This document shows positions 1-10,966 of a DNA stretch of 10,966 nt, in pieces. The notes under the pieces were generated by a model. It made no database searches. It had not been told where the DNA came from and worked only from the letters and a program-made list of their open reading frames with translations. How positions within the stretch are numbered: position 1 is the first letter of the stretch; each line of letters opens with the position of its first letter. The DNA is from a virus (taxonomy: Duplodnaviria; Heunggongvirae; Uroviricota; Caudoviricetes), in IMG/VR virus record IMGVR_UViG_2671180454_000005. One strand, given 5' to 3'. A program made the translations under genes and the position numbers.

Positions 1-367
1 CCTCAAAAACACCATCATACACTAAATCAGTAAGTTGGCAGCATCACCAGCCTTCTTGAGGCTACCACCTGTTTTCAGGTGTCATTCAGACGTGATTTGC
101 CCCAGATTGGGAAAGCACGCTTTTTTCTCAGCTATCGTCCTCTTATTTTGCCGTTACATTTCTTTTTGCATTCTAATGATTAATTTACAATAATAATATC
201 GGTAATTATTGAGTAATAATAAATTAATTATTGCAAATGTAATTTAATTCCATCTTCGCGTTATATTCCAATCTTTAATCTCCGCATGGAACAAGTTGCA
301 TGCGTGACTATATTAAGACGACTTATAACCACCAAAACATTTGCTTTGCAAGCAAAAACAGTGACCA

Positions 368-396
368 TTGACTCTAAGAAAATTCCGATCTATTGT
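368..396 (+). promoter_or_regulatory. Candidate sigma70 promoter (TTGACT, 17-bp spacer, TATTGT), predicted start about 403-405
   Basis: -35 TTGACT at 368-373 (5/6 to consensus), 17-bp spacer, -10 TATTGT at 391-396 (4/6). It is 35 bp upstream of the 431 ATG. AT-rich DNA contains many promoter-like hexamers (another is TTGCAT-17-AATAAT near 166-194), so specificity is low. Confidence 0.25.
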
Positions 397-430
397 TAGG
401 GTCATCAAAGTTACTTAACAGTATTCCGAA

Positions 431-532
431 ATGAAAATACAAAGCAAGCTAATTGTCTTATTAAACATTATTATTGCATTTATATTATTTGAGCTTTTAG
501 CTCAAAAATTTGGTTTGAGTACATTATTTTAA
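431..532 (+). CDS. Hypothetical 33-aa hydrophobic peptide (MKIQSKLIVLLNIIIAFILFELLAQKFGLSTLF); speculative
   Basis: ATG at 431 to TAA at 530-532, with an apparent single transmembrane-like segment. A promoter-like sequence lies upstream and a terminator downstream. There is no convincing Shine-Dalgarno, and AT-rich DNA inflates hydrophobic codons, so this may be chance. Confidence 0.2.
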   Translation: MKIQSKLIVLLNIIIAFILFELLAQKFGLSTLF

Positions 533-681
533 AGCAAGATAAACAATATCGGGCACTCTAGTTTTTATAATTAACAATTAAACGTCCATAAAATGTTATT
601 TACTTTTCTTCGCTATTGTCATATCTTAATATAGTGGCTTACGCCACTCTACTTTCATCACATTTTGTACGTTTATGTACT

Positions 682-714
682 CGCCATGAAGCTCTTTCAT
701 GGCGATTTTTTATT
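682..714 (+). terminator. Intrinsic terminator on the plus strand, convergent with tfa (9-bp stem CGCCATGAA / TTCATGGCG, loop GCTCT, then ATTTTTTATT)
   Basis: Perfect 9-bp inverted repeat at 682-690 / 696-704 followed by a T-rich tract at 705-714. On the minus strand the hairpin is not followed by a U-tract, so it is mainly a plus-strand terminator; it could also contribute to ending the tfa transcript. Confidence 0.55.
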
Positions 715-797
715 CTTAATCCAAGAACATACTCCCTACCTATAGCAAAATCACTTTTTTAACAAAAGAATAACGTATTTAGGTAATCATTACGAAT

Positions 798-1379
798 TTA
801 CCCTATAGGTGCTACTGGCCATTCAATATCCGGTGCAGTTGATGTATCAACACGGTTCAGCAACACCCGATACTTTTTCCAAGCTTCCAGCAACAAGGTT
901 TCTTTCTCCGTTGCGATCTCCAGATCCACAGCATCCTGAAGCGGCGCTATATGCTCACTGGCTACCTGCATCAGGCTGTTTTTTGTTTCTTCCGCCTCCC
1001 GGATCCGGAACAGTTTTTCTGCTTCCGTATCCTTCACCCAGGCTGTGCCGTTCCACTTCTGAAACTCCCCTTCCGGGGATAACCAGGTGACATTTTCCGG
1101 TAATGAGCCGAGTTCAGAAATAAATAACGCGTCGCCGGAAGCCACGTCATAAACCGTTTTACCCCGATGATCTTCAACGAGATGCCACGATGACTCATCA
1201 CTGTTGAAAACAGCCACGAAACCAGCCGGAATATCTGGCGGTGCAATATCGGTACTGTTTGCAGGCAGACCTGTATGAGGCGGAATATATGCGTCACCTT
1301 CACCAATAAATTCATTAGTTCCGGCCAGCAGGTTATAAATTTTTATGGTCCGTGCTTGTTCACTCATTCTGAATGCCAT
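798..1379 (-). CDS. tfa: Tail fibre assembly protein Tfa (193 aa)
   Basis: [62 protein letters not shown]... is near-identical to lambda Tfa as recalled. The ATG at 1379-1377 overlaps the stf stop by one base (TAATG), with a GAGG Shine-Dalgarno inside the stf 3' end. Confidence 0.9.
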
Positions 1380-4300
1380 TATGCGAGCCTCACAATATAG
1401 TTAAATGCGATGTTTTTGACGGTGTTTTCCGCGTTACCAGCAGCGTTAACGGTGATGGTGTGTCCATGTGAACCAATCGCAACAGAGTGCGTATGAGCAC
1501 CAATACCGACAGTATGCGCGTGTGCACCCGCAGATGCTGCTGTGCCGGACAGTGAGTGTGTATGGTTTCCTTCTGAAGATGATTTACCTACCCATTGGGA
1601 GGTGCCACTGGTTAATGAGCCACTGATACCAACCTGATTAGTCCCGCTAACTTGAGTACTCCCTGCCGGAAACATTCCAGTAGGTTGACTCCCGCTATTC
1701 GTTCTGGGCCCAGTCTGACTATGTTGGTGGGCCCCAGCTGAACTTGTAGAGCCGCTCAGACTGTGCGTATGCGCCCCGGTGTTATTCGTGGATTTAGTGC
1801 CGTAATCAAACGACGATGTGGTTTTCGTCCCCAAATCCGTACTGGATGCGCTGGCGCTGTGGGTGTGCGATTTAATGCCATCCTGTTCCTGAGACAATAC
1901 GGCACGACCACTGGCGGGCTTGCCCTTAATCGTCCAGCCACGCATATCAGGGATCACGCCTGACGGATAAGCGGCTGCAAGTTTCGGGTAAGCAGATTTG
2001 TCAAAAGTCTGCCCCTGCATCAGGGCATAACCAGACGGAACGGTATCTGATGGCCACGGGATTGGTGCACCGACTGGATAAAACTCTGCAGGAGGATGAG
2101 CCGAGGTGTAAAGCTGCGCCCACGGCGACCAGTTTGCGTCGGTCGTATCCCGTCGTGAACGAATAAATGCCGGAGCATGAGCACCGCTTGTACCACTCCA
2201 GCCGATGAGTAACTCACCTTCGCCAACGGCTGTCATCCCTTTCAGGTGAATGATATTTCCATACGCTGTTGGATATCCGTTGTTATACACCTCGTATAAC
2301 TCAAGACCTGCTGCCCCCTGCGTATTGTCTGTCAGCGCGGCTACCCGACCTTTTGAAGCCAGATTAACTGATGATACTGCTGTTCCACCTGACGGTAGCG
2401 CCCCGATCTCTGATGCCGTTGGCTTATTTCTGGAGTTATAGTCCCTTCGCCAGCCAGGTGAATAATCTGTTCCGTGATTAATATAGGTAAACTGGGCGTT
2501 GGTTGTTCCGCCACCGCTGGATGTGGTCGGAGTGGTAATGCGGATCGTCATCGCTGACTTTATCCCCATTACTTCAATGACAGCTCCGGCGAGATGAATA
2601 TTACCGCAGCCAGTATCAGTAATGATTTTATTATTGCCATAAGACCAGGAACCCTTGCACATCCAGTATGGATGGTTAAATGCTCCCTGAGAATCCAGCC
2701 ACTCGATAAACTGTGCAGTCGTCCAGTTTCCTGTTGTTGTGCTTACTGACCCACCGAAGGCACGGCAGGCACCAATATTTTTCGTAAAGGTGTCTTTGCC
2801 AGGGATATCCGCACCGTTCTGATCTTTCTGCAGACGTTTCTCAGCATTGTCATTGGCTGCTTTTACTGCCTTTGGCGTTGCCGCCAGCGTTTCAGACGTG
2901 CTGTTGGTCGCGCTGCTTAGCTGGATTATCCCTTTCTGTGCTGTCGTTGCATCCTGTGCGGTGTATTTCCCGTTAGCCAGGTCATACGCGGCCTTAACGG
3001 CTTTTGGTGTTGCCGCCAGTGACTCGGAAGTGCTGTTAGTCGCACTACTGAGCTGTACTATCCCCTTTTTCGTCGTGCTCGCATCCTCAAGCGCCACGGC
3101 GGATGCAATATCCTCTGCCCGTTTTGCCGCTGTCTCAGCGCGCGTTGCTGCAGATTCCGCCGTACTTTTGCTCTGAGCTGCTGCCGTCGCACTACCAGCA
3201 GCCTCTGTCGCCTTCGTGGATGCCGTCGTGGCGCTGCCCTTCGCTGCTGACGCCTGTCTGGTCGCCTCATCTTTTGAAGCAGACGCCGATGATGCCGATG
3301 ACGCCGCCGAACTGGCGGACGATGCGGCAGCCGTTTTTGAGGATTCTGCACGGGTTTCCGACGCTTTCGCGTTCGTTTCGGATGTCTTCGCTGCGGAAGC
3401 TGACCTCGCTGCTGCCGTGGCCTGCTCAGTGGCTTCGCCAGCCTTCGTTGTGGCTGTTGAAGCGGATGATGCGGCGCTTTCTGCCGATTTTCCGGCGGCG
3501 GTGGCACTGGCTGAGGCCTGCCCGGCACTTGTTGACGCGGCGCTGGCAGACGACGCAGCCGCTGTTTTTGAGCCTGCCGCAGCTGAGGCACTCTGTCCCG
3601 CTGCCGTTTCAGAAGACCTGGCGTTCGTCTCGGACGTTTTGGCCGCCTTCGCAGAATTTGCAGCCGCCGTCGCCGAGGAAGCTGCGCTACTGGCGCTTGA
3701 TGATGCGTTCGTTTCTGATGATTTTGCCGCCTCTTTTGAAGCCGACGCATCCCGGGCTGAGGTGGCAGCTTCTGACGCTTTCGTGGTCGCGGTGGATGCA
3801 GAAGTGGCTGCTGATTGTTGTGACGCTGCCGCATTCGTTTCTAACGTTTTCGCCGCACCGGCACTGGTAGCCGCCGCGCTTTTTGAGGACTCTGCAGCGG
3901 CAGCACTTTTTGAGGCTTCAGTGGCCTTTGTTGATGCCGTTCCTGCGCTGGAAGACGCTGACTGAGCCGACGAAGCGGCCTGTCCGGCTGACGTGCTGGC
4001 TGCACGTGCTGAATCTGCAGCATCAGTCGCATGGGTTGCCGCCTCACGGGCTGATGTGCTGGCATCGCTGGCTGATTTCTTCGCGGCTGCCGTGTTCTGT
4101 GCCACCGCGGACGCGTTACGCGCCACCTCTTCCACCATCAGCTCAAAACGGCGCAGTGCCTCCGGACGGGCATCATCCTCCGTCATGGCACCGAGAAAAT
4201 CATTCAGCGTACCGGGTCGGGAATCTTCATACACGGTGATGGTCCCGGCATGTGACGGCGGGAATCCTTCCACCAACAGAATAACGCTGTACTGACCGTA

Positions 4301-4462
4301 CTCAACGTCCATGCTGTAACGCCCGGCTTCATCCGGATTTTCTGAGGCCAGCGTGTTCACCACCACCGTGGTGCTGTTACGTTTTGCTTTCAGCTGGATT
4401 GTGCAGTTCTGTACCGGTTTTCCTGTGCCGTCTTTCAGTACACCTGAAATCTTTACTGCCAT
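1379..4462 (-). CDS. stf: Side tail fibre protein Stf, 1027 aa, mosaic (lambda-like N- and C-termini, expanded Ala/Ser/Thr-rich shaft, extra central domain)
   Basis: ATG at 4462-4460 preceded by GGGGTG. N-terminus [36 protein letters not shown]... and C-terminus ...[49 protein letters not shown] match lambda Stf as recalled, including the His-X-His repeats. The track ORF 1379..4705 is a run-through across the N gap; everything upstream of 4462 is artefact. The stop overlaps the tfa ATG. Confidence 0.85.
2854..3078 (-). repeat. Intragenic tandem duplication (2 x ~129 bp, 43 codons) inside stf, encoding TT(K/A)(K/Q)GI(V/I)[11 protein letters not shown](S/T)[11 protein letters not shown]
   Basis: Two consecutive near-identical 43-aa units (aa ~463-505 and ~506-548). 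Lambda Stf, as I recall it, has this motif once. Confidence 0.75.
3082..4114 (-). repeat. Low-complexity Ala/Ser/Thr-rich coding repeat region inside stf (about aa 117-460), with recurring AAKTSETNA-type units
   Basis: Translation is dominated by A/S/T with repeated KTSETNA(A/R/K)SSE and [10 protein letters not shown] motifs. The same DNA yields long spurious ORFs in other frames and on the plus strand, which is typical of GC-rich codon repeats. Confidence 0.7.
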
Positions 4463-4496
4463 ATTCACCCCACAAAAAAGCCCGCCTGAACCGGCG

Positions 4497-4629
4497 NNNN
4501 NNNNNNNNNNNNNNNNNNNNNNNNNNNNNNNNNNNNNNNNNNNNNNNNNNNNNNNNNNNNNNNNNNNNNNNNNNNNNNNNNNNNNNNNNNNNNNNNNNNN
4601 NNNNNNNNNNNNNNNNNNNNNNNNNNNNN
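4497..4629. other. Scaffold/assembly gap (133 N)
   Basis: Run of n characters. Sequence on the two sides is not contiguous: IS interior on one side, stf upstream hairpin on the other. Confidence 1.
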
Positions 4630-4873
4630 GTCTTTCTGGCTGGCGGTTCAGGGTATTTGAGGTAGCGTCTGACCGTCCGTTCAGAGCAACCAATCTGAGT
4701 CGCAATATCGACGATGTACGCGCCCTGCTGGCGCATTTGCTTTATCATGTAAAAGTCCTCTCTGCTCAGCATGTTGATGTCCTTTCTGGTGTGAGAACCT
4801 TAAGGAAACAACATGTTGGGTGGAGCGGACAATCCAAATGGCGAATTACCGTCTTATATCACTGGCGCTGACA
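4630..4873 (-). mobile_element. istA: IS21-family insertion sequence, left-end fragment (terminal ~100 bp plus first 47 codons of the istA transposase), running into the N gap
   Basis: Minus-strand ORF starting at 4772 encodes MLSREDFYMIKQMRQQGAYIVDIATQIGCSERTVRRYLKYPEPPARK, which I recognise as the helix-turn-helix N-terminus of IS21-family IstA. A candidate IS terminus begins 5'-TGTCAGCGCCAG at minus-strand position 4873, the TG start being typical of IS21 ends. The family call is from memory; the exact boundary is uncertain by a few bp. Confidence 0.6.
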
Positions 4874-5185
4874 CTTCATCACCTCCGGACGTAAATCACC
4901 ATCCTTTGGTGCATTCAGAAACGCGTTCAGTGTCCCCGGTGCATCAGTCGGTGCCACATCAATATCCCCGACACGGGTTGGCTGCCAGCCGTTACAGTGA
5001 AGCGCAACCTCGTAATACCCCGGCTCAGCCTCAATCACATAAGCACCGTTATTGTCCGTCACGCAAGTGGCAACAACGTGTGCCACAACGGTCGGACTGG
5101 TTCTTCTGGCCCGCAGTTCAATCGCACAATTTACGACAGGTTTACCCGCCCCATCTTTCAGTACACCTGAAATCTTTACTGCCAT
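4859..5185 (-). pseudogene. stf: Truncated side-tail-fibre gene: N-terminal 104 codons of an Stf-like protein, fused to 4 codons plus stop from the adjacent IS terminus
   Basis: ATG at 5185-5183. [28 protein letters not shown]... is a divergent allele of the Stf N-terminus at 4462 ([28 protein letters not shown]...), and the two share ...PGTLN(A/D)FL...RPE. The ORF ends ...PEVMK-CQRQ*, where TGTCAGCGCCAGTGA is the start of the IS-like segment. The track's upstream extension (MTARWFRRAFCGVN) reads through the terminator hairpin and is not credible. Confidence 0.65.
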
Positions 5186-5196
5186 ATTCACCCCAC

Positions 5197-5221
5197 AAAA
5201 AGCCCGCCTGAACCAGCGGGC
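5197..5221 (-). terminator. Intrinsic terminator downstream of lom (GCCCGC-TGGTTCAG-GCGGGC plus TTTTT on minus strand), immediately 5' of the stf-like start codon
   Basis: Plus strand 5197-5221 aaaagcccgcctgaaccagcgggc. A partial copy (gcccgcctgaaccggcg) sits at 4480-4496 against the N gap, upstream of the full stf. Confidence 0.6.
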
Positions 5222-5248
5222 AGTCATAACACTGTGTTACCTGGCTAA

Positions 5249-5848
5249 TCAGAACTTATAACCGACACCCACGATGAAACCGTCAGTGCGCCAGTCACCA
5301 CTGCCGGAACCTTCATAAGCAAGGTCAATGGCCACGGATTCGGTCGGGTTAAACTGCACGCCAGCCCCCCACGCCAGAGACGTGTTGCTGTGGCGACCGC
5401 CATCACTTCCGGTCAGCACATCGTGCGTTTTCCCCTTGTTGTCAGTTACGCGGAGATAATCCCCGGAGAAGGTCGACACACGGCTGTAAGCCACGCCCGC
5501 CATCGCATACGCGCTGAACCATTCATTCACGCGCACAGACGGCCCCGCCATCACGCTGAACCAGCGGTTACGCACGGAATCCTCATGCCAGCGGGTATCG
5601 CTGTAATGCGTTTTTTGCTCATCTTCAGCGTTGGCATAACTGAATGACGTAATCAGCCCCAGCGTGTCCGTAAACTCATAACGGTATTTCACGTTAATGC
5701 CCTTCAGGTCATCGCTGCCTGGCATATCAGTATGGGTCTGAAGATACCCGGCGCTCAGCGTGGACTGATGTTCAGACGCCCATGCAGGCGCACCGGATAC
5801 GGCCAGACAGATGGCTGCGGACAAAATGGCTGCACAAACTTTACGCAT
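5249..5848 (-). CDS. lom: Lom / Ail-family outer membrane beta-barrel protein (199 aa), apparently intact
   Basis: Predicted signal peptide MRKVCAAILSAAICLAVSGAPAWA. Motifs GINVKYRYE, AYAMAGVA and the C-terminal AYEGSGSGDWRTDGFIVGVGYKF match lambda Lom as I recall it. GAGAGG Shine-Dalgarno 8 nt upstream of the ATG; stop TGA at 5249. Confidence 0.9.
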   Translation of the reverse strand: MRKVCAAILSAAICLAVSGAPAWASEHQSTLSAGYLQTHTDMPGSDDLKGINVKYRYEFTDTLGLITSFSYANAEDEQKTHYSDTRWHEDSVRNRWFSVMAGPSVRVNEWFSAYAMAGVAYSRVSTFSGDYLRVTDNKGKTHDVLTGSDGGRHSNTSLAWGAGVQFNPTESVAIDLAYEGSGSGDWRTDGFIVGVGYKF

Positions 5849-5982: not shown

Positions 5983-6009
5983 NGTCATAACACTGTGTTA
6001 CCTGGCTAA

Positions 6010-6484
6010 TCAGAATTTATAACCGACACCCACGATGAAACCGTCAGTGCGCCAGAGACGTGTTGCTGTGGCGACCGTCATCACTTCCGGTCAGCACATC
6101 GTGCGTTTTCCCCTTATTGTCAGTTACGCGGATATAATCCCCGGAAAAAGTCGACACACGGCTGTAAGCCACACCCGCCATCGCATACGCGCTGAACCAG
6201 CGGTTACGCACGGAATCTTCATGCCAGCGGGTATCGCTGTAACGGGTCAGCTGGCGATTCTTGTCTCCTGCATAGCTGAATGACGTCACCAGCCCCAGCG
6301 TATCCGTAAACTCATAACGGTATTTCACGTTAATCCCGTTCAGATCATCACTGCCGGGAACGTTGGTCCGGGCATGAAGATACCCCGCGCTCAGCGTGGA
6401 CTGATGTTCAGACGCCCATGCAGGCGCACCGGATACGGCCAGGCAAATGGCTGCGGACAAAATGGCTGCACAAACTTTACGCAT
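6010..6484 (-). pseudogene. lom: lom-like outer membrane protein gene, disrupted copy (42-bp in-frame deletion plus 83-bp frameshifting deletion relative to the copy at 5249..5848)
   Basis: Start MRKVCAAILSAAICLAVSGAPAWASEHQSTLSAGY is identical to intact lom. Aligning against 5249..5848 shows a 42-bp deletion between 9-bp direct repeats CGCTGAACC (removes SVMAGPSVRVNEWF) and an 83-bp deletion between 6-bp direct repeats CGCCAG (copy-1 coordinates 5295..5377). The second deletion shifts the frame, giving a premature TGA at 6044. The native stop position is conserved at 6010-6012. Confidence 0.75.
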
Positions 6485-6508
6485 AATTACCTCTCGCTTT
6501 TCTGCAAT

Positions 6509-6532
6509 AAAAAAGGCACCATTTCTGGTGCC
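6509..6532 (-). terminator. Intrinsic terminator downstream of the J fragment (GGCACC-AGAAAT-GGTGCC plus T-run on minus strand)
   Basis: Plus strand aaaaaaggcaccatttctggtgcc; same structure as 5873-5896. Confidence 0.55.
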
Positions 6533-6551
6533 CGTATCTGGGTTATAAAAT

Positions 6552-7985
6552 TCAGCTAATCGTGATGCCTGCAGTGGCTTTCTTCATCACCACAACCAGC
6601 AAATCGCTGATACTTGCTGTGGGATACCAGCCATTTACCAGCCATGCCGATACAGAAAACTCCAGCGTCATGTGACCGTGACCGGCAGGCATATCAATAA
6701 CACCCGTATATATCAGCGTATTATCCAGGGTCGTTCGGTTATAAATTTCAGCACCGTTTTTCTTCACTATCAGGCGGCATGACGAATAAATATTGTTATT
6801 CTTCCGCTCATGTTTAGCACCGCGAAACGCCACCGCGGGAATAACAATTTGCCGATCAAACGGCTGATCGTCATAAACCCTGACGGTAATGGTCCCTGAT
6901 GGCCACCTCTCCGGTGCCCGGGAGTCCCGTGGGAAAGGTTTGCCCACTGTTTTAACGAGATCGCCTTCAATCTGGTTCGCGGACAATTTTCCCAGAACCC
7001 GACAGTTCTTATTAATCGTGACGTTGTTGAGCGTCCCGGAGTTCGCGTTCACGTTACCGCTGATATCGGCATTTTTCGCCGTCAGCCGTCCGCCAGGTGT
7101 CAGGGAAAATGCCGGAGGATTACCGCCGCTGGTAATGGTCGGAGCCGTCAGGCATTTCAGGAACACGTCGTTCATGAATATCTGATCGCCCTGACCAACA
7201 AACATCGGCTTTGTGTTGCCATTCGCAGGATTAATCATCGCAATCCTGTCTGCCGCCAGCAGCACCTGACTCTGCATTCCTGCTGGCGTATTCTCAATAC
7301 CGGCACCGATACCCGCAATATAAAGGCGTCCGTCCTTCATCTGTTGCAGCTTCACAGCCCACATGCTGTTCAGGTTATTATTTGTATCAACCTGAACTTT
7401 CTGTATCTGCTGGATTGCAGCACTCTGATTTTCCAGTTTTTTATTGACGGTTTGCGTGATTTCATTGCTGACATTCGTAATGGACGTCCTGATTTCAGTC
7501 AGGTCCGGCGCAAGCTGACCGTTATCAATCTGCGTCCACAACTCCTTGCCGAGATGCGTTTTATTGATCAACCCTTTATAAAAATTCAGATAACCTTCTG
7601 CATCATCGCTCGCCCGACCGATGGCCTCCACAAATGCCGATTTGCCAACGGTGTTCACACTGCGAACGTAAAAATAATAATCATGGCCCGGCCTGATATT
7701 GATACTGGCGGCTATCCAGTACAGCGCCGTGCCAAGATAGCGGGCGCTGGTTTCAACCTGCCTGATATCCGCAATCCGCTTTTCCGAAAACCAGAACTCA
7801 AACTGCACCGTCGGGTCATATACAGCCAGTTTCGGGACCGCCGTTATCTGAAAATACCCCGGTATCAGTTCAATAGTGACAGGCGCTGCCGGTGCCGCAA
7901 TCCGGAACGATACCGACGCCGGATCGCCCTGCTGCCCCCGGGCATTTACCGCCCGGACTGTCAGACTGTAATTCCCCAGCGCCAG
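6552..7985 (-). pseudogene. J: J C-terminal fragment (about 478 codons), second copy, 5'-truncated at N7986; carries a different C-terminal receptor-binding domain from the main J
   Basis: In-frame translation ([32 protein letters not shown]... [10 protein letters not shown]) aligns to the main J copy from about 9535 to 8082. The two are near-identical over about 320 aa, then diverge over the last ~155 aa (6552 to ~7015 versus 8082 to ~8565). Stop TGA at 6552-6554. No start codon or N-terminal 650 aa, so not a complete gene here. Confidence 0.8.
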
Positions 7986-7986
7986 N

Positions 7987-8011
7987 AAATGGCTGCACAA
8001 ACTTTACGCAT
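7987..8011 (-). other. 25-bp lom 5' fragment (ATG plus 8 codons, MRKVCAAI) ending at ambiguous base N7986
   Basis: Minus-strand ATGCGTAAAGTTTGTGCAGCCATTT is identical to the first 25 nt of lom at 5848 and 6484, preceded by a GAGAGG Shine-Dalgarno. The sequence past N7986 is J-internal, not lom. Confidence 0.7.
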
Positions 8012-8081: not shown

Positions 8082-10966
8082 TCAACGAATACTGATGCCG
8101 GAAGCCGCTTTTTTGGTCACAATCACCGTACAGTCGGTGATATTGCCTGCCCCCTGATTGCCTTTCTGGAAAATCTTAAACTCCAGAGTGACGCTACCAC
8201 CACCACTAGGCATATCAATAACTGCACTGTAACTACCGGGAATGGCACCTTTAGTTTCTCTGGATGCGATTAATACGCCGTTTTTGCGAACTTCAAAACC
8301 ATAACCCGTGTATCGCGTGCCTCCTGGGTTATTTCCGCTCCCCGGATCGTCATACGCTATACCGTTAAAAATAATGGGCGGAATAATAATCTGGCGGTCA
8401 AAGTTATGATCATCGCTTATGGTGACTGTAACCGTCCCGTTTGGTGTTTCCGTGTTACCCCACGTACCAGCCTGTTTCGGAAATGATTTGGATACAGCTT
8501 TAACGAAGTCACCTCTGACCTGAGTCGCCTCCAGCATGCCCTTAATCGTACAGTTTTCATTTACCGTGACATTGTTGAGCGTCCCGGCGTTCGCATTCAC
8601 ACTGCCACTGATATCCGCATTTTTAGCGGTCAGCTTTCCGTCCGGAGTCAGGGAAAATGCCGATGGATTTCCACCGCTGGTAATGGTGGGGGCCGTCAGG
8701 CGTTTCAGGAACACGTCGTTCATGAATATCTGATCGCCCTGACCAACAAACATCGGTTTTGTGTTGCCATTCGCAGGATTAACCATCGCAATCCTGTCCG
8801 CCGCCAGCAGCACCTGACTCTGCATGCCGTCAGGGGTGTTCTCAATACCGGCACCAATACCCGCGATATAAAGGCGTCCGTCCTGCATCTGCTGCAGCTT
8901 CACAGCCCACATGCTGTTCAGGTTATTATTTGTATCAACCTGAACCTTCTGTATCTGCTGAATTGCCGCACTCTGGTCTTCCAGTTTCTTATTGACGGTC
9001 TGCGTGATTTCATTGCTGACATCCGTAATGGACGTCCTGATTTCAGCCAGGTCAGGCGCAAGCTGACCGTTATCAATCTGCGTCCACAGCTCCTGAGCCA
9101 GATGGGTTTTCCCTATCTCGCCTTTGAAAAAATCCAGATAACCGGATGCATCATCACTCGGCTGACCAACAGCCTCCACGAATGCCGATTTGCCAACGGT
9201 GTTCACACTGCGGATATAAAAGTAATAATCATGGCCCGGTTTGATATTGATACTGGCGGCTATCCAGTACAGCGCCGTGCCAAGATAGCGTGCTGTGGTT
9301 TCAACCTGCCTGATATCCGCAATCCGCTTTTCCGAGAACCAGAACTCAAACTGTACCGTCGGATCATAAACCGCAAGATGCGGCGTGGCGGTTATCTGAA
9401 AATAGCCCGGCGTCAGCTCAATCCGCGACAGCGCTGCCGGTGCGGCAATCCGGAACGATACCGACGCCGGATCGCCCTGCTGCCCCCACGCATTTACTGC
9501 CCGGACTGTCAGCCTGTAGTTCCCCAGCGCCAGTTGTGTGAAGCGGTAAGTGGTTTCCGTCGTCCGGGCCGTGCTGACCAGCCGCTCACTGCCGTCATCC
9601 GCTGTTACGGTCAGACGGAGCAGGAAGCTCACGCCCTTCACCACCTTCGGCGTGTCCCAGCGCGCCAGCACCTGATATTCCCCGCTGTCTGCGGTGACTT
9701 CGGCAGTCAGGTGCTGCACCGCTGGCGGCGTGACACCATTCACCGTGCCGCTCTGGTCGCCGTCAAAGTGCGCCCCGTTATCCACGATGGCTTCTTTTTC
9801 CGGCACATGCTGCACGGCGGTGATGGCATACGTGCCGTCGTCGTTCTCACGGATACTCACGCAGCGGAACAATCGCTGGTGCAGCGTCGGCAGCTTCAGC
9901 CCCCACACGCTGTATTCAGCAACACCGTCAGGAACACGGCTCACTTTTACCTTCACGCCGTCGGTGACGGACTGGACCTCCACGCTGACCGGATTCCCCT
10001 GCCCGTCAACCAGGCTTATCAGCGTGGTGCCGGAGGATGGCAGCGTGATTTCACGGTCGAGCGTCAGCGTCCGGGTCTGGCTGTTCACCGCCAGCACGCG
10101 CCCGCCGGTGCGGATACCGGCATAGTCATCATCGCAGATTTCAATGACATCGCCCGGTACATGACGAAGCCCTTCAGCACCCACGCTGAAATCCACGGTC
10201 TGCGTCTCCAGCAGTTCCGTTTTAATCAGCCACAGCCCGGCGCGGTGTGCCTGCCCCCGGCTGGTACAGCCAAAGGCATCCATCTTCGTGACATTACGAC
10301 CGTAACGGGCAATGGCCTGCGTATCCTCCACAAGCTCTGTCGCCGTCTCCCAGCCGTTATCCGGGTCAATCCAGTTCACCTCAACGGCATTATGGCGGTC
10401 TTTCAGGGCGCTGAAACTGTAGCGGAACGGCGCGCCATCATCCGGCATCACCACATTACTGCGGTTATAGGCCCACACCTTATCCGACTGTCGGTCCTGC
10501 ACGAACGTCAGCGTCTGCCCGTTCCATACCGGCATACAGCGCATCGCCGAGCAGAAATCACTGAGCACATCCCACGCCTTGCGCTGTGTGGTCAGCCAGG
10601 CATTACAGGTGATGCGCGGCTCCGTGCTGCCAAAGCCGTCCGGCACCGACTGGTCACAGTACTGGCCGATGACATACAGCGCCCATTTATCCACATCTGC
10701 CGCACCAAGACGTTTCCCCATGCCATAGCGCGGATGGGTCAGCATATCCCACAGACACCAGGCCATGTTGTTGCTGTATGCCGGTTTTAACGTTCCGTCC
10801 CAGATACCGCTGTATTGCCGCGTCTGCGGATTATAGTTCGACGGCACCTGCAGAATGCGCCCGCGAAGATGATAATTACGGCTCACCTGCTGGCTGCCGA
10901 ACTGCTCCGAATCCACCTGTACGCCGACCAGTGCCGTGTTCGGGTAGCACTGTTTCACATCGATGA
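8082..10966 (-). CDS. J: Host specificity protein J (tail tip / central tail fibre), 5'-partial: the reading frame runs off the window edge
   Basis: Open frame of 958+ codons on the minus strand. The translation ([57 protein letters not shown]... [21 protein letters not shown]...) matches lambda J as I recall it. The track's first 'M' at 10958 is an internal GTG (Val), and the frame stays open to 10966. Stop TGA at 8082-8084. Confidence 0.9.

Follow-up and report, generated by a model that had tools for sequence, protein, structure and literature searches.

The side tail fibre protein (Stf) encoded in the window (the whole stretch of 10,966 nucleotides that was analysed) carried a central block that was absent from lambda Stf, and this block consisted of two separate, independently mobile modules, A and B, and a short linker. 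The block is probably a cassette of two shaft domains that can be swapped between fibres. They would stand out as knobs, flanked by the rod and the needle, and the specificity would remain in the tip. The protein is a tail-fibre mosaic of an already known kind, and the same architecture was already present in public databases.

The gene content of the window, all on the minus strand, was J, lom, stf and tfa, which corresponds to the tail end of lambdoid prophages. The tfa gene lay directly after stf, and its start overlapped the stop codon of stf, an arrangement also seen in lambda. The features of this region were as follows (aa, residues of Stf).

1379..4462, minus strand: stf, the complete side tail fibre gene, encoding 1027 aa according to the ORF translation
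4061..4462, minus strand: N-terminal tail-attachment domain, aa 1–134 (Pfam phage_tail_N, PF08400, E = 1e-71)
3098..4060, minus strand: Ala/Ser/Thr-rich repetitive rod, aa 135–455 (74% Ala+Ser+Thr, zero aromatic residues)
2828..3079, minus strand: two Phage_fiber_2 repeats, aa 462–545 (PF03406, E = 6e-37, two stretches)
2069–2860, minus strand: non-lambda central block, aa 535–798, absent from lambda
2771..2860, minus strand: linker opening the central block, aa 535–564, aligned to 8ju3 from chain residue 178
2411..2770, minus strand: module A, aa ~565–684, a globular fibre domain of the Mu S'/P1 Sv'/P2-like H type
2357..2410, minus strand: inter-module connector, aa 685–702, with a motif recurrent at module ends
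2102..2356, minus strand: module B, aa ~703–787, a small all-beta fibre domain (as modelled) with no curated family
Within stf, minus strand: Collar, aa 798–845 (Pfam, E = 7e-12)
1382..2083, minus strand: T4-gp37-like receptor-binding tip, aa 794–1027 (2xgf, T4 gp37 tip, E = 1e-81)
798..1379, minus strand: tfa, tail fibre assembly chaperone (Pfam Caudo_TAP, E = 5e-44)

Both ends of the protein were lambda-like. The N-terminal domain shared 90% identity with lambda, and its first 94 residues matched the lambda tail fibre chain of the cryo-EM entry 9e7m (E = 1e-51); the tip was 78% identical to the lambda tip. The duplicated motif that the original prediction had recognized upstream of the block, SSATNSTSE(S/T)LAATPKAVK, proved to be the two Pfam Phage_fiber_2 repeats.

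For the comparison, lambda Stf (Ur-lambda) was rebuilt to 774 aa from NC_001416 across the PaPa frameshift, which joined orf-401 and orf-314. The two proteins had in common phage_tail_N, the Ala/Ser-rich rod, the Phage_fiber_2 motif, the gp37-like tip and the downstream tfa, and the window stf probably also shares the place of the lambda gene after J and lom. However, their mid-sections were unrelated. The tblastn alignment to lambda (NC_001416) was limited to aa 1–~500 and aa 795–1027 of the window Stf and left the block uncovered, and a BLASTP comparison of window aa 535–798 with lambda aa 386–533 found nothing significant (best E = 1.4). The linker at aa 535–564 had no counterpart in lambda either. 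From the Phage_fiber_2 motif to the conserved APIPWPSD, lambda Stf contained 148 aa (386–533) and the window Stf 264 aa (535–798), a net gain of 116 aa. The remaining length difference was mostly upstream (+149 aa), where the Ala/Ser/Thr-rich rod was ~105 aa longer than that of lambda (105 gap positions in the alignment) and two Phage_fiber_2 repeats stood in place of one. Since 148 aa of unrelated sequence occupy this position in lambda, the central block is a replacement and not an insertion.

The original prediction had described an extra domain of ~250 aa compared with lambda. Its picture of lambda Stf was correct in this region and the block was indeed absent from lambda, but it takes the place of another segment and is not an addition. 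The proposed span, 2077–2830, mapped correctly to aa 545–795, although the non-lambda block was slightly wider, at aa 535–798. To call it a globular insert in a fibre was fair wording, in that module A resembles a crystallised domain of Mu S' and module B is modelled as compact beta, but there are two mobile modules and not one domain. The P2 gpH-like mid-section that lambda possesses was missing from the window Stf. It cannot be regarded as defining the family, because the annotated Stf proteins of isolated phages carry the same central block as the window.

Module A was homologous to a domain in the fibres of Mu and its relatives. Residues 539–723 of Stf matched chain residues 178–362 of 8ju3_A with E = 1.4e-69 and ~80% identity over the core, and a profile of 12 module A sequences matched 8ju3 with E = 9e-92. 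The entry 8ju3 is the fibre of phage Mu in the G(-) form (S/S', gp52). The identity of module A was 81–87% in P2-like H proteins, 67% in P1 Sv' and 60% in D108 S', and the module was also found in P7, D6 and SSU5. At ~80% identity, module A would be expected to share the fold of Mu S'. An AlphaFold2 model of aa 520–806, built from the single sequence with no alignment, was unusable (pLDDT 30).

The linker and module A were homologous to the corresponding parts of Mu/D108 S' (gp52), P1 Sv' and P7 S, and the linker was also present in a P2-like H protein. Domains similar to module B occurred in P1 Sv' and P1 S. The S', Sv' and S fibres of Mu/D108, P1 and P7 differed from the window Stf in several respects: they are myovirus fibres with other N-termini, are borne on invertible segments, and have other distal tips and chaperones (U'). 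No catalytic role is known for the crystallised Mu S' domain.

Module B was detected in 662 clusters of a representative library at 50% identity, and no curated family was found for it. A Pfam scan of 32 homologues gave nothing meaningful, no NCBIfam model was found, and the single sequence had no match among the PDB sequences. The profile of 32 sequences gave one hit with E = 0.03 to the FN3 domain of the leptin receptor (WSxWS region), which was taken as chance. The AlphaFold2 model of module B, calculated from the 32-sequence alignment, had a mean pLDDT of 85 (core >94) and contained six strands. In the Foldseek search of this model against the PDB, the best match was the C-terminal region of T4 gp34 (4uxg/5nxf; probability 1.00, E = 4e-3 to 2e-2, TMq 0.49–0.58). 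Other PDB matches were 6eu4 (an Acinetobacter phage tailspike) and 8ju3, and the weaker ones included R-pyocin fibre regions (E = 0.3–0.4) and phage receptor-binding proteins. The top fold matches in BFVD were the tail fibres of Goslar and of the Acinetobacter phages 133 and Acj9.

The P3–P5 domains of T4 gp34 are wider domains of the shaft with a five-stranded antiparallel sheet per chain, and phages mix, match and duplicate domains of the gp34 type (Granell et al., 2017, PMC5537660). Module B and the gp34 C-terminal region (P3–P5) appear to be alike as small antiparallel beta-sheet domains, but their sequence identity was just 13–18% and the fold match was only moderate (TM ~0.5–0.58, high rmsd). 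The model suggests that module B may resemble, by fold, the widened beta domains found at intervals along the gp34 shaft. We also asked whether modules A and B were homologous to each other. The hhalign match between them came only from the C-terminal flanks of module B, which some sequences in the alignment of module A also covered, and it was uninformative on the cores.

The original prediction had also offered an enzymatic domain as a reading of the block. As a depolymerase, esterase or deacetylase, it would degrade surface polysaccharide, and enzymes do occur in some tail fibres and tailspikes. In module A, a D-T-G-(C)-G stretch was invariant, as were His and Glu residues, and this would be compatible with such a role. 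The D-T-G motif was considered as a catalytic signature and rejected, as neither a family nor a fold supported it. No enzyme family was matched in Pfam, NCBIfam or PHROGs, and the PHROG matches were annotated as 'tail fiber protein' or belonged to families of unknown function. Moreover, each module has merely ~85–125 aa, and the fold matches that scored best for module B (with high Foldseek probability) were phage fibre or tailspike proteins. An enzymatic function is therefore very improbable. The segment had been said to contain four Cys, but only three were counted (aa 566, 602, and 619), all of them within module A; the remaining Cys of the protein was at aa 20.

The two modules were combined in different ways among fibre proteins. 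Module A preceded module B in the window, whereas P1 Sv' and many database proteins had them in the order B then A. In other proteins, module B was located directly before the gp37-like tip and module A was absent, and a Photorhabdus protein had module A in tandem. The position of module B ranged from 1 to 80% of the length of the protein that carried it, and some proteins had two or three copies. Mu S' and a P2-like H protein had different distal parts attached to module A, and A/B modules also occurred together with unrelated tips of phages that infect different hosts. A connector, W-x3-Y-x4-KP(S/T)-x2-(D/E)-(I/V)-G-A, recurred at the module ends in many homologues. The Pfam model Gp34_trimer matched aa 654–713 weakly, below the cut-off (E = 0.003). 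Mobile pseudo-domains of fibres, several of them from distal gp34, have been described with RBPseg (PMC12143355).

The same block was carried by isolated lambdoid phages, whose genes were annotated as 'side tail fiber protein Stf'. The Stf of PhiR68_2, PhiR29_1/2, PhiR42_1, PhiR26_1, mEp460_ev081 and SPF_0923 had the same domain order from end to end as the window, and the identity of the block across the set was 97.6–99.6%; they differed in the tip only (83–85% identity). In PhiR68_2, SPF_0923 and mEp460_ev081, modules A and B were 97–100% identical to those of the window, compared with 83–85% for the tip. Among the database proteins with the order of the window, the modules were 96–100% and the tip 69–83% identical. 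Where A, B and the tip directly adjoined, the modules were again 96–100% and the tip 69–79% identical, and three divergent variants had 74–82% identity in A and 91–92% in B. At the nucleotide level, the window and PhiR68_2 were 99–100% identical at aa 501–800, 37% at aa 901–950 and 79% at aa 951–1000, so the hypervariable stretch of the tip, measured against PhiR68_2, lay at aa ~901–1000. These identity profiles across relatives indicated that it was mainly the tip that had diversified, rather than the central block.

Such a pattern bears on the suggestion in the original prediction that the segment was a second receptor- or glycan-binding module. The suggestion gained no support here, as the modules were 97–100% conserved where the tips fell to 69–85%. 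In a more specific form, one or both modules could be an accessory low-affinity carbohydrate site on the shaft, which would recognize LPS core, O-antigen or capsule and aid reversible adsorption. The modules are globular and aromatic-rich: Trp, Tyr and Phe made up 10% of the modules vs. 0% of the Ala/Ser rod. Many positions of Trp, Tyr and Arg were invariant, although the invariant aromatics may just build the hydrophobic core of a trimer. The presence of R-pyocin fibres and phage receptor-binding proteins among the weaker fold matches is consistent with a carbohydrate site, as is the fact that, in Mu S' and P1 Sv', module A lies in the variable part that switches the host range. However, the modules were nearly invariant where the tips diverged, they were paired with unrelated tips in phages of different hosts and in either order, and the Pfam scans returned zero matches to lectin or carbohydrate-binding families. 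We regard a low-affinity carbohydrate site of this kind as unlikely.

The conservation and the shuffling of the modules are more in keeping with exchangeable parts of the shaft than with determinants of specificity. The high conservation of the modules is also compatible with the binding of a conserved ligand, for example LPS core. There is a small chance, slighter still than that given to the low-affinity site, that modules A and/or B are accessory glycan-binding knobs of the shaft. If so, fibres of this common E. coli class would bind at two spatially distinct points, a protein or LPS receptor through the tip and a conserved sugar through the shaft, and module B would be an undescribed carbohydrate-binding family of phages with at least 662 clusters at 50% identity.

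The block was widespread in Escherichia coli. At least 80% of the segment was present in 800 of 5426 complete E. coli genomes (~15%), and at least 80% of the whole stf gene in 636 complete E. coli genomes. In K-12, a remnant of the Qin prophage beside nohA contained module B and the gp37-like tip with 99.6–100% nucleotide identity (query positions 488/491–754). It differed from the window Stf in being truncated, without module A and everything upstream. The fibre remnant gene next to nohA is known as stfQ.

The prevalence of the gene also bears on whether the block could come from a mis-joined chimeric ORF or a decayed prophage remnant and not from a functional fibre. The window is a scaffold with runs of N at 4497–4629, 5983 and 7986, pieces of J, lom and stf are repeated within it, and a gap of 133 N and an IS fragment lie between stf and the upstream lom/J. 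The start codon of stf was only 34 nt from the nearest gap. However, the complete ORF of stf was contained in the gap-free piece 1–4496. The Stf of PhiR68_2, an isolated phage with the gene order J-lom-stf-tfa, was 95% identical to the window Stf over all 1027 aa, and the Stf of mEp460_ev081 and SPF_0923 were similar. With complete, near-identical genes known from isolated phages and from several hundred closed genomes, an assembly artefact was rejected; we consider this explanation extremely improbable.

The preferred explanation remains a cassette of exchangeable shaft domains. Here, the P2-gpH-like mid-section of lambda would have been replaced, through mosaicism of tail fibre genes, by two in-line domains that form trimers. 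Module A is the domain with which the variable part begins in Mu S' and P1 Sv', and it also occurs in P2-like H proteins. In the assembled trimer, each module is predicted to protrude from the shaft as a knob, and the two knobs would separate the Ala/Ser-rich rod from the T4-gp37-like needle tip. The role of the modules is likely to be structural, probably purely so: they may lengthen and stiffen the fibre, set its geometry and hold the trimer in register. They may also supply conserved junctions at which tips and shafts recombine, and the candidates for such junctions are, on the upstream side, the Phage_fiber_2 motif, then the KPTAxxIGA connectors and, on the downstream side, APIPWPSD. The specificity for the host receptor would stay in the C-terminal tip, the folding of which may be aided by Tfa.

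Both modules are common and mobile, and they are shared by Mu, P1, P2-like phages and ~15% of the E. coli genomes, so the feature belongs to ordinary tail-fibre mosaicism. It is a textbook case of such mosaicism between lambdoid, Mu/P1 and P2-like phages and adds little new biology. Module B, as a widespread fibre domain with neither a curated family nor an experimental structure, is a small annotation gap worth filling. The mapped boundaries (Phage_fiber_2, KPTAxxIGA, and APIPWPSD) are usable as natural junctions for engineered chimeric Stf, and the variation relevant to host range in this class of Stf lies in the tip, at aa ~900–1000.

The window is a scaffold, in which four pieces are joined by N runs at 4497-4629 (133 N), 5983 (1 N) and 7986 (1 N). 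Mutually similar repeats were found at the ends of these pieces.

Repeats at the ends of the scaffold pieces
7002-7985 and 8550-9533, C-terminus of J, 89% identity
5554-5982 and 6190-6618, lom, 91% identity
4413-4496 and 5136-5218, 5′ end of stf, 90% identity

The gene order past the first, gap-free piece probably reflects several lambdoid prophages in a draft assembly rather than a single prophage. The genes concerned, which encode the tip attachment protein J, Lom and the side tail fibre (Stf), were each present in two copies or parts of copies.

Duplicated genes and gene fragments
4859-5227, minus strand, truncated second Stf N-terminus (122 aa; phage_tail_N, E = 1.5e-36)
5249-5848 and 6044-6484, minus strand, lom in two copies (Ail/Lom family)
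6552-8000 and 8082-10958, minus strand, two J C-terminal regions

The truncated Stf copy departed from the main Stf beyond the first ~30 residues, and it stopped immediately ahead of an insertion sequence (IS) fragment. One of the lom genes was full length (199 aa); the other, which lay close to the single-N join at 5983, encoded 146 aa and covered only positions 1-159 of the 199 in the profile, with an internal gap. The shafts of the two J copies were ~89% identical to each other, whereas the receptor-binding domains (Ig_GpJ_C), which make up the final ~130 aa of each copy, were plainly unlike. This suggested that the two J proteins were derived from two different prophages.

Possible traces of insertion sequences were observed at the first join, where the fragment just mentioned lies, and at the start of the window.

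4630-4772, minus strand, transposase-like ORF (MLSREDFYMIKQMRQQGAY...), cut short by the N run after its 47 N-terminal residues

This partial ORF matched an IS21-family transposase model weakly (E = 3e-5, far below the cut-off). The first ~46 nt of the window (1-46) resemble a terminal inverted repeat of IS1, and positions 1-1400 had up to 68 matching places per E. coli genome, plasmids included. The remainder of 1-797, as far as the end of the tail fibre assembly gene tfa at 798, had a GC content of 32-38% and contained no ORF of at least 60 aa.

Long antisense and alternative-frame ORFs (249-258 aa) were found on both strands at 3058-3965, where they overlie the Ala/Ser/Thr-rich part of stf. 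The sequence there is repetitive and strongly biased, with a GC content of 61%, and these ORFs are most likely by-products of such sequence and not genes.

Module B, a small all-beta fibre domain at Stf aa 703-787 (window 2102-2356; homologues P0121-P0268), was strongly conserved and ~90 aa long, and its consensus includes YNNGYPTxYGNVLxLKG. It was present in 662 clusters at 50% identity; no model was found for it in Pfam or NCBIfam, and no match in PDB by sequence.

The T4 gp37-like tip of Stf contained a hypervariable patch.

1463-1762, minus strand, hypervariable tip patch (Stf aa ~901-1000)

Compared with the isolated lambdoid phage PhiR68_2, nucleotide identity was 37% at aa 901-950 and 79% at aa 951-1000, whereas the rest of stf was mostly 98-100% identical, with 93-95% in three other 150-nt windows. 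The same patch was the stretch of Stf that aligned worst with T4 gp37, and it is probably the receptor-contact region.
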